This document shows positions 3,001 to 9,000 of a DNA stretch of 15,995 nucleotides, piece by piece. The number at the start of each line of letters is the position of its first letter. Position 1 is the stretch's first letter. This DNA comes from a virus (Duplodnaviria; Heunggongvirae; Uroviricota; Caudoviricetes), in the IMG/VR virus record IMGVR_UViG_2531839661_000011; one strand, 5' to 3'. A program made the position numbers.

Positions 3001-6000
3001 CAGGCTATCACGAAAGCCGTGACGGACTCAAAGCACTGGGCGCAGAACGTCACCATTACATTAATCTGGCACGCGCAGAGAACCGTGTTACAGGTCTGGT
3101 GGCTGGAGAACGCAGCACAGCCAGCGAGCAACAGTTAGGCTTACTGATAGTCATGCAGAAAATCGAGCAGGCAGCATTTGACGAGGCGATACAGAGCGGC
3201 ATGACACCGACCGAAGCGGTGCGGGAGGTTGCCTGCCGCATGGAGACGTTCGCCAGCCTGATGACGTCAGCGCCGTCTCTGGGGGTGAATCATGCGTAAT
3301 TATGTTATCCCTCCCAATCATGAAGGCGGTTATATTTATGTGGCGCTTTCTGACATTGGATTAGTTAAGGTTGGAAAAACCAGAAATGTTTCAGCCAGAA
3401 TGAAACAGCTATCCACTGGTAGCGGCATAGTAATCACTAAAGTCGAGGTGTTAGGGCCATTTGTTAATTACGGACAAGTCGAATTAGCTATTCATGCAAA
3501 ACTTACATCAGAACGCCGTTCTGGTGAGTGGTTTTCTGCTGATTTTGATACGGTTAAAGCAATTGCTATCGATACATCAGGAATAGGTACTCCTGGTGCG
3601 GAATTAGTTAACAACGATGCTTATCGCTACGAACGCGTGTTTTTATGGTTTAGTGCGCATGAGGAACAAATTAAATACGAACAAGCACTTTGCGAAATAT
3701 TATCTGATACGGCAATTAACTTTCTTAAGGAGTATGGCACAGCTTGCGCCCCATATGTTGCTTTATGTATTCACACAATGGGGGGTGTAACTCTTCAACA
3801 GGGACAAAAGGCCTACTCTGTATATCCTTGTGGATTTAAAGAGTCCACATTGGATCAGTTAAGGGAGGATTGGAATAATTTTGCAGATAAAGATATTTTC
3901 GAAGACTCTGATTTTGATGATTTTCTTATAGACATAAGTGATAAAGATAAATTTAAGTCAGAAGCTGAGGAATGGAGAACTGATGCAATAAATAATCTTT
4001 TCACAGAACTCACCGATGATTACCAGCGCTGGCTGGCCCGTCGCATGGGAGAGCATGAACATGCCTGACATCCTCAAACCTGCTGTCCGGTACATCGACA
4101 CGGCGGATAAGTTCGCACTACTGAACATCAACCATGCTGATTACATGCGCCATATCGTGAGCCATTTCGCCGCTGAGCGCATGAAACACGTTAAGCATTA
4201 TCAGAAGGAGGCTTTATCAAATTATCGCACTGGTGGCCCTGTACGGCGCGAATATCCGCATGATGCAGGAATGGCAGGCAAAACAAAGGCGACCACGAAA
4301 GGGTCGCCAGTGGAGATAAAGGAAATCAAGCGCATCACCAACTATGCCATGAGTGTAGCTGGTGGACAATGCTATCAGCCAGGCGGTCGGTTTTTAGTGG
4401 CTTTTAACCGCCGTGGGTATTTCTCGACAAAATCTTCAAGGGCAAATTTTTTAGCTTTTGTATGTGATGCCTTTGACTCGTCATCACATGTTTTTCCGCG
4501 CCTTATCCTGTTTTCAATAAAACGGGAGGCGGCCTTTTTATTCAGCGATGAATCAATGGGGCTGCTCCCTGTTTGCTGCTCGACAATGGCATCCATGAGT
4601 AGTTGGTGTTGTAGTTGTCGTAAAAATTTCTCATCTTCTGGTGGTAAATCCATACTTATTTCCTGTACAGCGGAGCGACGCAGCACCTCACACCACGGCG
4701 CTGATGGTTGTTATTCGTTTTATGGAGTCAAAGAAGCAAAAGCGGATCGCTATCGGTTTTTAGGCGAGATTAATCGCCGTGGGTATTTGTCCAGAAATGC
4801 CTCAAGCGCAAATCGTTTTGGTCTGGTGAGAGGAGAGGGATTAAGCAAAGACTCACGTTCCAGGCGTACTTTTTCGCGCTGGCGCTCAAGTATGGATAAT
4901 GCGATTTCCTGTAATTCTTCATTTGTCATTGTCTGTACCCGTAAAGCGGTGCGCTGTAGTACCTCATATCACAGCGCAGGTATTTTTTATGGTTGTAATT
5001 TGCGTGATGATTCAGGTCGCTTTGCGACATACTGCATAAACATAAATAACGTGATGTTATTATGTGCTTTCAAAGAAAACGCAGGTATTTTTCGCACAAA
5101 CTTCTCTCGCAACACATCCGACCACTTAAGCAAAAAAGCGGCATATACTGAGGCTATCCCTTATAAAACGGGGATCGGGCGTAGGAACCCGTTTAACTGT
5201 GAGGCGACAAATGACGCCAGAAGCGTCTTTTTTTCTGCCAGCGATTTACGCCATATCAATGGTGTTGTGCATTGTGCGTACCCGTGCACCATCCAGTCAT
5301 TTCACGAGTTGCATTTTGCACAGCGCCACCAGCAAACAATGGTGATGCTGGCGGGGCTACCGAAAGGTAGGCCGGAGTCCTTACAGTCCGGTATTCCTAC
5401 CCCCGCCAGTGTCACCGCCCTGTGTGAGCGTAGGAACTCCAGCGGTGACGTTATTTATCACTGTAAGGAGGCTGCCACTATGGCTACTACCCCTACCCTG
5501 GTACATTCTCAAACCGCCTTCATCTGGCGCTTTATCACTGTTGGCACGTCAGAACGTCAAATCATCCACGTAACCGCCTGGACGGAACTCGAAGCGCGTA
5601 ACCGTTGCCCGTCAGGTTGCGTTGCTGTATTCGCCGCCCGTATCCGTCAGGAGGCATCACATGGATAAAAACATGTTGATCGCCTCTTCTTTCGGGCTGT
5701 ATGATGCCGGAGTCGCCCACATGGCGACCGGGTTTAGCAGCCTGAATAAATTGGCGGACAGCCGCCCATATCCGATAAGCGGTTTTTTTGTGTCCGTAAA
5801 CCTACCCATACCCGCATTATGGCGGGGCGTAACGGGGGAGCCTTTGCGCTCGCTGGTTTCCCAATTTGCCAGTCTGCTAACCCTGTTACGTCTCGCCACC
5901 ACGTTTAGCAGCGTAGTAGCGAGACTCCTTAACATTAAATTGGGAGCCTTTCACATGGCTGTATCCGCACGCCCTTACTTTGTCTGGCGCTTTATGCAGT

Positions 6001-9000
6001 GCCTGACAGACAGCATTGCAATATTCACCGTTACCGCTGCCACTGAGCGCGAAGCACGCGCCCAGCTGCCGCACGCACATCTTATTTTTGTCGCCCGTAT
6101 CCGTCAGGAGGTGACTCATGCTTAAAACCTTCCGCGTCTTTTCCCGTGCTGTTAATAAGCGCGGCTATACCGTTGGCATCACGCAGAACGTGAAGGCCGA
6201 AAACGTCCAGGCTGCAATCAGCACAGTAATTAACAAATCAGCTAAAGCCGGTTTATCCGGCGTAATTATCCACGCAGTGACATGTATTCAGGATGAGGAG
6301 TAATTCATGTGTGATTTTTCCGATATGACTGTTGATGAAGCAGCAAAAAGCGCAATGCAGGCAGAACTTATTTGTTCTCTGATGATGGGTAACACAGGTG
6401 AAATGACTGAGGGTGAGATTGAGTCATTGCTCGCCCTGATTAAGCAGCTTACAGGTAAGGCAGGTAGCTGGCTGATTGCTGCATCGGGTGATGATGCAAT
6501 ATGCGTCAATGACTGAATCCTTTGTTGTTCTGAATATCATGAAATTAAGGGGGTGCAGTAATGCAGCAAATAACACTGGCAGAAGCCTCACTGCAAGCGC
6601 AACAGGTCGAAGTAATTAGCCGCATGATTGAACGCAACCACGAAGAAATAGACGACCATGACCTTTCTGTTATTGCAGGACTTATCAAACAACTTTCCAG
6701 CAATGTGGCGGTGTGGTTAATGACGGAGGAAGAAAAACGCGGCGAACAATAACGGCTAAAAATAAACGGGAAATAAATATTAAGACGACTCCTTCAGGAG
6801 ATTAATTCAATGGCATCAAAAAATACTGGCTTAACTGCCAGTAGCAAAACTCACCCCGAATTTATGTGCGGGGATATTTACCGCAATGAATACGGTAGCC
6901 ACATGACGATGATCAGCAGAGGTAAGAAATGAAAAGCGCACCGAACTTAAAAAAACAGCCTCGAGGGAAAAAACACGCCGATACGGAAGTGATTATTTTC
7001 GCTGGCAGTGATGCGTGGGCGCACGCGAAACAGTGGCTGGAGCAGGACGGAAAACTTGCCGGAGATAATATACCGCCCGTCGTGCTGGCTGATGAGCAAC
7101 TTAAAGATATTGGCAATCTGCAAATTGTACCCGACGGGCGCAAATCAGCGCGTATATACAAGGCCGGACACCTCGATCAGGTGATGGTCAAAGGCATAGG
7201 TCAGAAGCTGGCGGCGGCAGGCGTACAGGACGCAGACTATTACCCCGAAGGTATGCACCATAACGAGCGGCAGAACTGGCGTAACTATCTGGAGACTGAG
7301 CGCAAAAACATTTCTGACGGGCTGGTTATTGAGCTGCCTGTAAAGAAAAAAGAGCGGGGAAAAGGTGATGATGCCACATCACTGGCGCTAAACCAGATGG
7401 GGGCAAGCCAGCGCGGCGAAGTTCTTCTGGCACATTATGGCGGCGAACTGGCAATAAACGCAGACTCTGACACAGTGCATTATTACAACAGTGTTGTATG
7501 GGTTCCCGTACAGGATAAAGAGCTACAGCGCACAATGGCGCAAATCTTCATTGACGAAGATATCTGCTATTCACAAAACGCCATAAAATCGGCGGTTGAT
7601 ACCATGAAGTTAAGTTTACCCGTAATGGGGAATACCGCCCGCAACCTGATTGGATTCAGTAACGGGGTATTTGATACCCGTACAGGTGATTTCCGTGAAC
7701 ACGATAAAAATGACTGGCTGTTAATTGCCAGTGAATTACCGTTCACCCCACCAGCAGAGGGTGAAACGCTGGCAACACATGCGCCGAATTTCTGGAAATG
7801 GTTGCGCCGTTCGGTGGCTGAGAATGACCGCAAGGCAGATCGCGTTCTGGCAGCGTTATTTATGGTGCTGGCGAACCGGTACGACTGGCAGTTATTCATT
7901 GAGGTAACAGGTCCTGGTGGAAGCGGTAAAAGTGTTATGGCAGAGATTTGTACCATGCTGGCAGGTAAGGCCAACACGGTATCGGCAAGCATGAAGGCAC
8001 TGGAGGATGCAAGGGAACGTGCATTAGTGGTTGGCTTTTCACTGATTATTCTGCCGGATATGACCCGCTACGCGGGTGATGGTGCAGGGATAAAGGCCAT
8101 TACGGGCGGTGACAAGGTGGCAATTGACCCGAAACACAAAGCGCCATACTCAACGCGTATTCCGGCGGTTGTGCTGGCGGTTAACAACAGCGCCATGTCA
8201 TTCAGTGACCGCAGCGGGGGGATCTCACGTCGTCGTGTGATATTCAATTTTTCGGAGGTTGTACCGGAAAACGAACGCGATCCGATGCTGCCGGAAAAAA
8301 TAGAAGGTGAGCTTGCTGTAGTGATTCGCCATTTGCTTACGCGCTTTTCTGATCAGGACGAAGCCAGACTCCTGTTACATGAGCAGCAGAAATCAGAGGA
8401 AGCCCTTGCGATAAAGCGTGAGGGGGATTCGCTGGTGGACTTCTGCGGCTATCTCATGTCGTCGGTAATGTGTGACGGCCTGTTAGTCGGTAATGCTGAG
8501 ATTATTCCTTTCAGTCCACGCCGTTATCTCTATCACGCCTATCTGGCTTATATGAGGGCGCACGGGTTCAGTAAGCCCGTAACACTGACGCGCTTTGGTG
8601 CGGATATGCCAGGTGCAATGGCGGAATATGGCAGGGAATATATGAAACGGAAAACGAAGCACGGATTGCGCTCAAATGTGACGCTGACAGAGGAATCGGA
8701 GGACTGGATGCCGTCATGTGCACCAGTGAAAAATGAGGGTGATAAAAATTAAGTTATAGAAAAACTGTTCACCACTGTTCACCCTGTAATAAATGTATTT
8801 AGTATCAATATGTTAAGGGGTGAACAGTTTTGTAAAACTATTCACCCAAGTGTTCACCTGTTCACCCTGTTGTTTGATTTTTGAACAGCAAAGGGTGAAC
8901 AGGGTGAACAGGGTGAACAGTTGGTGAACACCTTTACAAAAAGTGTTCACCCCTTAACTTCATGAATCTAAAGGTGAAATAGCAAAAGGTGAACAGTTGA

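Follow-up and report, generated by a model that had tools for sequence, protein, structure and literature searches.

We present here an analysis of a 15,995-nucleotide stretch of DNA (hereafter the window) from the Caudoviricetes record IMGVR_UViG_2531839661_000011, and find it very likely that positions 5156-6125 hold two complete, orthogonal antisense-RNA immunity modules in tandem, which would gate the operon of a P4-alpha-type primase. The two modules stand head to tail and, to judge from their sequences, the former is P4-type and the latter P1/P7-type. The original prediction for this region had described a chain of six small open reading frames (ORFs) coupled into the primase gene, with two internal paralog pairs, two of the ORFs carrying in their last codons a Shine-Dalgarno sequence and an overlapping ATG for the next ORF. 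All six ORFs are indeed found between 5480 and 6932 (Table 1), while the explanation of the duplication and of the Shine-Dalgarno/ATG arrangement was missed, namely two C4 antisense RNAs with their target boxes, as in the mechanism of P1 immI and P4 immunity. The duplicated unit is wider than the ORF. It is a module of about 480 nt with two structured RNAs, in which a leader with boxes a1 and b1 and a terminator is followed by a C4 RNA, boxes a2 and b2, and an ORF similar to icd of P1 (icd-1 in module 1, icd-2 in module 2).

RNA elements and pairing specificity of the two modules

In both modules the a1 and b1 boxes are followed by a terminator or a T7 run, all upstream of the C4 RNA. Both C4 RNAs are full-length matches to Rfam RF01695 above its gathering score (45 bits) and lie 50-60 nt upstream of an icd-like start; on the CI RNA of P4 the same model gives 74.9 bits. 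The leaders reach the gathering score of neither isrK (RF01394, 50) nor c4-a1b1 (RF03163, 46.7) and were found at a relaxed threshold, with E-values from 5.6e-9 to 2.6e-3 that are significant though sub-threshold. Outside the ORFs MAFFT aligned the two modules poorly, and the Rfam matches were used as anchors instead.

Table 1. Features of the 5156-6932 region, the long frames and the primase gene
Feature	Position	Strand	Evidence or remarks
Long stop-free frame 1 (eta-like), ending as icd-1	4016..5668	+	ORF scan; RefSeq 550-aa 'Icd-like protein'
IsrK/SeqA-like leader RNA 1	5156..5233	+	Rfam isrK 49.6 bits, E 5.6e-9, gathering 50; c4-a1b1 24.6 bits
Leader-1 box a1, GTAGGAA	5181-5187	+	complementarity to C4-1
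Leader-1 box b1, ACTGTGAGG	5196-5204	+	complementarity to C4-1
Leader-1 intrinsic terminator, then T7 run	5213-5227	+	terminator scan
C4/CI-type antisense RNA 1 (C4-1), P4-like scaffold	5335..5422	+	Rfam RF01695 69 bits (gathering 45), E 6e-12
C4-1 target a2 in icd-1 leader, GTAGGAA	5430-5436	+	complementarity
C4-1 target b2 in icd-1 leader, ACTGTAAGGA	5460-5469	+	complementarity
icd/kil-like ORF 1 (icd-1), 62 aa	5480..5668	+	NF033153 58.7 bits; alignable with P1 Icd
Second eta-like nested frame, 154 aa	5661..6125	+	in frame with icd-2; RefSeq 'frameshifted' Icd-like pseudogene
Sigma-70-like promoter candidate of module 2, TTGATC-18-TATGAT	5676..5705	+	consensus match only; putative function
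IsrK/SeqA-like leader RNA 2	5712..5789	+	Rfam isrK 37.6 bits, E 7e-6; c4-a1b1 32.4 bits; both below gathering
Leader-2 box a1, TTAGCAG	5734-5740	+	complementarity to C4-2
Leader-2 box b1, TAAATTGG	5747-5754	+	complementarity to C4-2
Leader-2 hairpin, then T7 run	5782-5788 (T7 run)	+	
C4-type antisense RNA 2 (C4-2), P1/P7-like scaffold	5815..5903	+	Rfam RF01695 73.3 bits; alignment with P1 c4
C4-2 target a2, TTAGCAG	5905-5911	+	complementarity
C4-2 target b2, TAAATTGGGAG	5936-5946	+	complementarity
icd/kil-like ORF 2 (icd-2), 56 aa	5955..6125	+	NF033153 53.7 bits; 43% identical to P1 Icd
Small ORF, 61 aa	6118..6303	+	phrog_3672 (function-unknown family)
Small ORF, 69 aa, paralog of 6561	6307..6516	+	phrog_1478; homologs in 23 related loci
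Small ORF, 63 aa	6561..6752	+	phrog_1478; predicted two-helix hairpin
Internally deleted DUF4222 remnant, 40 aa	6810..6932	+	synteny with full-length homologs
P4-alpha-type primase/helicase, last gene of the chain	6929..8752	+	Pfam D5_N, DUF5906, Pox_D5; 49.5% identity to P4 alpha

In module 1, C4-1 has a predicted fold of -49.3 kcal/mol, with UCCUUACAGU as its b' loop and UUCCUAC as its single-stranded a' box. The b2 box covers the Shine-Dalgarno sequence 11 nt before ATG 5480, which is the distance of P1, and a2 and b2 are spaced by 30 nt from start to start, compared with 29 in P1. Except for the key boxes, the leader of module 1 aligns almost base for base with the seqC/kil leader of P4. 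In module 2, the b' loop of C4-2 is UUCCCAAUUUG and its single-stranded a' box, CUGCUAA, is the a-box of P7; b2 covers the Shine-Dalgarno sequence 8-9 nt before ATG 5955, and the a2-b2 spacing is 31 nt. The promoter candidate of this module lies 29 nt before a1, the promoter P1c4 (P51b) of P1 32 nt before its own a1, and the region 5724-5913 has 75-81% DNA identity to immI of P1, P7, D6 and SJ46-type phage-plasmids. Cross-talk of C4-2 with a P1-like helper was considered and rejected: the exact loop is found only in small island contigs, and P7 has the same a-box with a different b-box.

All eight target sites of the two C4 RNAs, a1 and b1 upstream and a2 and b2 downstream, are present in the window at fixed distances. 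The two modules are orthogonal, without cross-pairing: the loop duplexes have energies of -14.6 and -12.3 kcal/mol for the cognate pairs and -5.6 and -3.7 kcal/mol for the crossed ones. Short complementarities of such length also arise by chance elsewhere in the 16-kb window, and therefore the comparative evidence is decisive. A covariance model was built from the two C4 RNAs of the window and P1 c4 and was searched against 89 sources (the window, P1 and 87 related loci), giving 46 plus-strand matches, the three model-building sequences included. The related loci and the window have 23 distinct combinations of key (the boxes of the C4 RNA) and lock (its target sites), or 24 with P4, made of 19 b' loops and 9 a' boxes. 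The lock matches the key in all of the combinations (24/24); a1, b1, a2 and b2 change together with the key, with constant distances and an almost invariant scaffold. On average, the b boxes score 9.65 in cognate and 4.56 in non-cognate pairs, and the a boxes 7.04 and 4.02, with no non-cognate a pair reaching the cognate minimum. At the level of sequence comparison, this strongly supports function of both modules and diversifying selection on their specificity; the diversification of the key is the same phenomenon as the heteroimmunity of P1 and P7.

The tandem is also seen outside the window. Two C4 RNAs lie about 478 nt apart in 9 IMG/VR loci, two or three icd-like ORFs are present in 28 of the 87 related loci, and 69 of 5426 complete E. 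coli genomes match at least 80% of the junction from icd-1 to module 2. A clean single-module example occurs in another species, Escherichia albertii (locus L008, 5720-5908), where isrK (61.6 bits, above gathering) stands immediately before C4 (77.7 bits) and the frame of the icd-like ORF meets stops as close as 75 nt upstream.

The icd-like ORFs and the long frames around them

Both icd-like ORFs pass the NCBIfam model NF033153 (phage_ICD_like, 'host cell division inhibitor Icd-like', curated cutoff 25 bits), for which P4 Kil gives 76.1 bits and P1 Icd 52.6 bits as controls, and RefSeq names both as Icd-like, a name also carried by the 56-aa database homologs of icd-2. Together with the DUF4222 remnant at 6810, they show that the original prediction was wrong in stating that none of the small products is recognisable. 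Its suggestion of take-over factors keeps some ground, as the two ORFs belong, by motifs and profile scores, to the family of host-directed proteins that comprises P1 Icd and P4 Kil. In the P1 record Icd is annotated as a reversible cell-division inhibitor, in the P7 record likewise as a division inhibitor, and P4 Kil is described as acting in cell killing (PMC10111431). In the alignment with P1 Icd, the W, R and F of FxWRF, the TExEAR motif, and the P and F before AR are invariant, and the N- and C-terminal residues of icd-1 agree with P4 Kil. The link to P1 Icd and P4 Kil needs profiles, because tblastn of icd-1 against phage records gave a single satellite-like record (vB_KppS-Ant) and missed both P1 and P4. 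As in P1 and P4, each icd-like ORF is the first translated ORF after the C4/CI RNA, with its Shine-Dalgarno sequence inside the b2/seqC target. Among the variable columns of icd-2, 21, 19 and 34 fall on codon positions 1, 2 and 3 respectively, so third positions vary most.

The notion that an icd-like gene always goes with a C4 RNA was also considered and does not hold, since in roughly half of the related loci neither Rfam nor our own unfiltered model detects a C4 with the icd-like first gene. These C4-less islands (L041-L089, for example L065 at 4457-5150) have neither C4 nor IsrK RNA before the icd-like gene, and show instead a divergent promoter region of the protein-repressor type, with an inverted repeat and a minus-strand gene of the YlcI/YnfO family (NF041551). 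An in-phase open frame is present even there, for example in L065 at 4080-5150. In five other loci (L010, L012, L019, L028 and L030) a third, partial icd-like fragment stands 5' of the first C4 RNA (for example L010 2612-2698), which suggests repeated accretion of modules through recombination at the conserved 3' end of icd.

The two paralog pairs of the original prediction are borne out by BLASTP. The products of 5480-5668 and 5955-6125 are 44% identical (E 8e-13), having FxWRF and (V/I)F(A/V)ARIRQE in common, while those of 6307-6516 and 6561-6752 are 30% identical over 54 aa (E 1e-8) and both match phrog_1478. A 41-nt direct repeat, 5630-5670 and 6087-6127, is 80% identical and spans the common ...CGTATCCGTCAGGAGG...CATG ends of both icd-like ORFs. 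In both of them, as had been noticed, the ATG of the next frame sits 5 nt before the stop, making an 8-nt overlap (ATG 5661 with the stop at 5666-68; ATG 6118 with that at 6123-25). Actually, such ATGnnTRA overlaps occur four times, at 3292/3299, 4061/4068, 5661/5668 and 6118/6125; in that order they join the Rha gene with the GIY-YIG gene, the GIY-YIG gene with the long ORF, icd-1 with the 5661 frame, and icd-2 with ORF 6118. This arrangement suggests one long chain, probably coupled in translation, from the Rha gene to ORF 6307. For the six-ORF chain itself, overlap or adjacency is seen at four junctions (5661/5668, 6118/6125, the 3-nt gap from 6303 to 6307, and the ATGA at 6929/6932) and not at the remaining two, 6516-6561 and 6752-6810, which are spaced by 44 and 57 nt, with a Shine-Dalgarno sequence of their own in each.

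Both icd-like ORFs are nested in long in-frame ORFs, in the manner of kil within eta of P4: 5480-5668 is contained in 4016/4061-5668, and 5955-6125 in 5661-6125. The likely coupled start of the first frame is ATG 4061, which overlaps the GIY-YIG stop at 4066-68 and would give a product of about 536 aa; that of the second is ATG 5661 at the icd-1 stop. In P4 the counterpart is found in ATGs 2855 and 2858, which overlap the orf88 stop. The first frame traverses IsrK-like RNA 1, the terminator and C4-1, and the second is open through promoter 2, IsrK-like RNA 2 and C4-2; over the homologous RNA elements, both eta-like frames are in phase with P4 eta. The icd-1 frame is open for 1488 nt upstream and the icd-2 frame for 381 nt. 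Between 4069 and 5479 there are 0 stops in the icd-1 frame and 18 and 34 in the other two (composition-based P ~3e-11). When the upstream sequences are grouped into 35 distinct clusters, 19 of these have an in-phase frame without stops for 300 nt or more before the icd-like ORF; the other two frames are that long in 1 of 70 cases (Fisher 2e-10), and in P1-type phage-plasmids the in-phase frame is open for no more than 18-42 nt upstream of icd. A like long open frame with different upstream sequence is seen in L034 (1227 nt) and L040 (1140 nt).

For module 2, the ATGnnTAA junction and the open frame are kept in 28 of 30 tandem sequences, and the frame from 5661 to 5955 is open throughout in 21 of 26 distinct sequences. 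The variable columns of the extension 5661-5954 fall on codon positions 1, 2 and 3 in numbers of 30, 27 and 19. There is thus no third-position bias, showing that openness is kept rather than the peptide sequence. With regard to the choice between the 5661 and 5955 starts, which the original prediction had raised, 5955 appears to be a real start, because it has a Shine-Dalgarno sequence and the b2 site and because the 56-aa form is the one found in databases; by analogy with P4, both starts may be used, on different transcripts.

The first frame also lies over two minus-strand ORFs, 4375-4686 (103 aa) and 4750-4929 (59 aa), whose C-terminal motif FALE(D/A)F(V/L)(E/D)KYPRRL is common to both owing to a 75-nt repeat. 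Homologs on the minus strand are found in 8 related loci; neither ORF matches any family, and a hairpin resembling a terminator lies at 4308-4288. They are unannotated in RefSeq because the 550-aa plus-strand ORF is called over them. Antisense codon phase as the cause of the open 4016-5668 frame was rejected, as the frame is out of register with these ORFs. The P4 eta analogy would account for frame 1 from about 5100 onward, and not for its openness across the minus-strand genes.

Regulatory reading of the tandem and its alternatives

According to PMC3632133, PMC4825925 and PMC10111431, a single module of this kind is known in P1, P7, P4, N15 and Gifsy-1, and C4/isrK matches have been noted in phage-inducible chromosomal islands (PICIs). 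One of the nearest likenesses of the arrangement is P4, where our own scan finds isrK at 60.8 bits, C4/CI at 74.9 bits, and kil (65 aa, 3260-3457) nested in the eta ORF (2813-3457), which spans seqA and CI. Both P4 and the window have an isrK/SeqA-like RNA with a terminator, a C4/CI RNA, a2/b2 on the Shine-Dalgarno sequence of an Icd/Kil ORF of about 60 aa, the nesting of this ORF in a longer one of the same frame that is coupled to the gene before it, a stop overlapping the next start by 8 nt, and then small ORFs and an alpha-type primase. The window differs in having two modules in series instead of one, in an eta-like ORF 1 of about 536 aa (214 in P4) that crosses minus-strand genes, and in downstream small ORFs unrelated to epsilon, orf151 and orf106. 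As described in PMC10111431 (citing Forti et al. 1999), CI lies within eta, and Kil is a truncated form of Eta; an upstream late promoter is the only one from which Eta is translated, in coupling with an alpA homolog, and the translation of Eta prevents immunity-dependent termination. For P1, the GenBank record gives a1, b1, c4, a2, b2, icd and ant1 in order, with 29 nt between a2 and b2 and b2 ending 11 nt before the icd ATG, and states that icd is 'apparently required for expression of ant'. Module 2 has the order and spacing a1-b1-c4-a2-b2-icd of P1/P7 immI besides the similarity of its RNA part and the a-box of P7, and in P1/P7 immI, too, the icd stop overlaps the start of the next gene. 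However, its b-box differs from theirs, the window has small ORFs and the primase rather than an antirepressor after icd, and P1 has in-frame stops just upstream of icd, hence no eta-like frame. The Salmonella Gifsy-1 locus isrK-STnc1160-orf45-anrP (PMC4825925) is alike in its IsrK leader with a read-through terminator, processed C4-like RNA and coupled short ORF, orf45, whose translation is required for anrP through translational coupling. It is unlike in having a single module that feeds the antirepressor and Q antiterminator of a lambdoid prophage, and in that IsrK was shown there to activate translation in trans. In the Gram-negative PICIs of PMC10111431, the 'Bro zone' has a similar order, from integration through Bro-network genes (Rha, GIY-YIG) to replication with primase and SSB, and several of them match the Rfam C4 and isrK models, whereas tandem modules of different specificity or a second nested frame are not described in the available part of that paper.

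By this analogy, each leader transcript would be processed to a stable C4 RNA, as for P1/P7 c4 and P4 CI, which are stable RNAs of about 77 nt made by RNase P processing of the leader transcript (cited in PMC5499578). The C4 RNA would pair with a2 and b2 of its own module and block the ribosome-binding site of the icd-like ORF; the untranslated transcript would then terminate, leaving everything downstream silent, the primase operon included. When the icd-like ORF is translated, the 8-nt stop/start overlaps would pass ribosomes to the next cistron. Ribosomes coming from upstream, from the Rha/GIY-YIG operon or from icd-1, would translate 4061-5668 or 5661-6125 through the RNA elements and so override the lock, in analogy to kil within eta of P4. 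An extended form of this scheme, which we offer tentatively and regard as somewhat doubtful, takes the modules as two locks in series, each with its own promoter, decoy-leader, key and lock, and with the nested eta/kil-type frames as the link between them. Replication would be off only while both locks hold, and upstream translation would override both, Rha/GIY-YIG ribosomes translating through the first lock, and a ribosome that finishes icd-1 restarting at ATG 5661 and translating through the second. Two keys would also protect against two classes of related elements, in keeping with the 19 different b' loops of the relatives.

Several points weigh against reading the region as two immunity modules. 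All the mechanistic steps above are carried over from the genetics of P1, P4 and Gifsy-1, and both IsrK-like matches are under the Rfam gathering score (49.6 and 37.6 vs 50). In many relatives the first gene is icd-like though no C4 RNA is present, so that the icd-like ORF is not dependent on the RNA switch. The 4016-5668 frame would be translated antisense to two probably real minus-strand genes, which is unusual and unexplained. In module 2, 5 of the 26 distinct sequences are not open at 5661-5955, and the sequences are near-identical across loci outside the key boxes; as they are such close relatives, the openness of this module is weak independent evidence.

The C4-less relatives are also in favour of a possible, though somewhat doubtful, reading in which the Icd-like ORFs are mainly effectors, that is division inhibitors or killers, kept in two copies for dosage or for different targets, and the RNAs are ordinary regulation with no tandem logic. 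The residues conserved from P1 Icd through P4 Kil to both ORFs of the window, the enrichment of third-position variation in icd-2, and the records of P1 and P7, which call Icd a division inhibitor, all suit it. It gives no account of why each copy has its own key/lock set with distinct specificity, nor of the in-frame open stretches, and it is compatible with the two-module explanation rather than exclusive of it. The open stretches themselves would mean little if the long frames 4016-5668 and 5661-6125 were due to chance or to gene callers and the true starts were 5480 and 5955 only. We think this unlikely, although the extensions lack third-position bias, the only family for them is PHROG 29966, probably built from the same over-extended calls, the first frame passes through a terminator and antisense to likely genes, and P1 has in-frame stops 33 nt upstream of icd. 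The complete lack of stops over 1.4 kb and the opening of 19 of 35 clusters stand against it, and so does the experimentally studied eta/kil pair of P4, which has exactly such a layout (PMC10111431). That one of the modules, module 2 or else module 1, is a decaying remnant of recombination between two islands, with a single functional switch, seems highly improbable. RefSeq does flag 5661-6125 as frameshifted, the family has mosaic members (P0041, for example, has the N-terminus of icd-2 and the C-terminus of icd-1), and five loci have the third, partial icd-like fragment. Yet both C4 RNAs are well above gathering, each module has a perfect match in all four of its target boxes, the two ORFs are undisrupted and have Shine-Dalgarno sequences, and 69 complete genomes contain the tandem junction; the 'frameshift' call has its explanation in an N-terminal extension that is translated RNA sequence and not part of the Icd domain.

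With two immunity modules, the mechanism is a known one, and what appears to be new is the tandem arrangement of two specificities and the second nested frame; our limited literature search found no description of either tandem heterospecific modules or a second nested frame. Hypothetical small ORFs thereby become a testable regulatory device, whose key/lock pairs have predicted base-pairing rules. With 19 or more orthogonal b' loops on a scaffold that hardly varies, the relatives offer a resource on the diversification of immunity in satellites and phage-plasmids, and a natural library usable for building orthogonal RNA switches. The annotation calls for correction as well, since the RefSeq 550-aa 'Icd-like protein' and 'frameshifted' pseudogene hide two RNA genes and probable minus-strand genes, and may be P4 eta-like read-through frames rather than ordinary proteins.

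Downstream small genes and island context

The small ORFs fill the slot that is held in P4 by kil, epsilon, orf151 and orf106 ahead of the alpha primase, in agreement with the early-operon position of the original prediction. Their conservation in related islands bears the prediction out as well: among the 87 related loci, icd-like ORFs are found in all 87, 6810/DUF4222 in 73, the 6307/6561 family in 27 and ORF 6118 in 26. What lies between the icd-like ORF and the primase gene differs in content among loci. In single-module relatives, ORF 6118 is coupled directly to the stop of the icd-like ORF by the same ATGCTTAA overlap, which suggests that module 2 was inserted or recombined in at the conserved icd/6118 junction. 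ORFs 6118, 6307 and 6561 gave nothing significant in Pfam, NCBIfam and PADLOC and function-unknown families only in PHROGs; homolog searches for them returned close E. coli hypotheticals only, hence shallow alignments, and the predicted structure of 6561 has no significant match in the PDB. By BLASTP the small ORFs do not match epsilon, orf151, orf106 or orf88 of P4, none of the four ORFs after icd-2 resembles a PADLOC model, and no Ant-like family was found by NCBIfam, Pfam or PHROGs for the genes downstream of icd-1 and icd-2. Of the last small ORF, 6810, about 28 residues are left at the N-terminus and RGKK at the C-terminus, and it still overlaps the start of the primase gene by ATGA. Its full-length syntenic homologs of 95-99 aa match PF13973 at E 1e-24, while the copy in the window has no Pfam match; a DUF4222 gene stands ahead of the primase in 73 of the 87 loci. 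These four (6118, 6307, 6561 and the 6810 remnant) are accessory cargo in the slot of P4 epsilon/orf151/orf106, the first three being conserved but variable.

The window as a whole is an integrated satellite-type island of E. coli. Its sequence is 100% identical to an island in the chromosomes of E. coli O43 RM10042 and several O145 and bovine strains, inserted in the yicC/dinD interval. By RefSeq and Pfam, the plus-strand order is integrase, helix-turn-helix protein, Rha-family gene and GIY-YIG gene, then the 5156-6932 region, and 3' of it primase, SSB, ProQ/FinO-family protein, PerC-family regulators and Q-type antiterminator. A matching gene order is known from Gram-negative PICIs and P4-like satellites (PMC10111431). 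No sid, psu or delta gene is named in the RefSeq annotation of the island, whose ORFs were not all scanned with dedicated models. The gene of the ProQ/FinO-family RNA-chaperone-like protein (9951-10418, plus strand) adjoins SSB and is worth noting beside an antisense-RNA switch; its role as a dedicated C4 chaperone was rejected, as no more than 1 of the 21 C4-bearing relatives with sufficient flanking sequence has the gene. The one phage-collection record matched by icd-1, LR881103.1 (Escherichia phage vB_KppS-Ant, 16.5 kb, an induced prophage), also carries the closest primase (73% identical), so that it is a packaged relative of the island and a possible lead to its helper.

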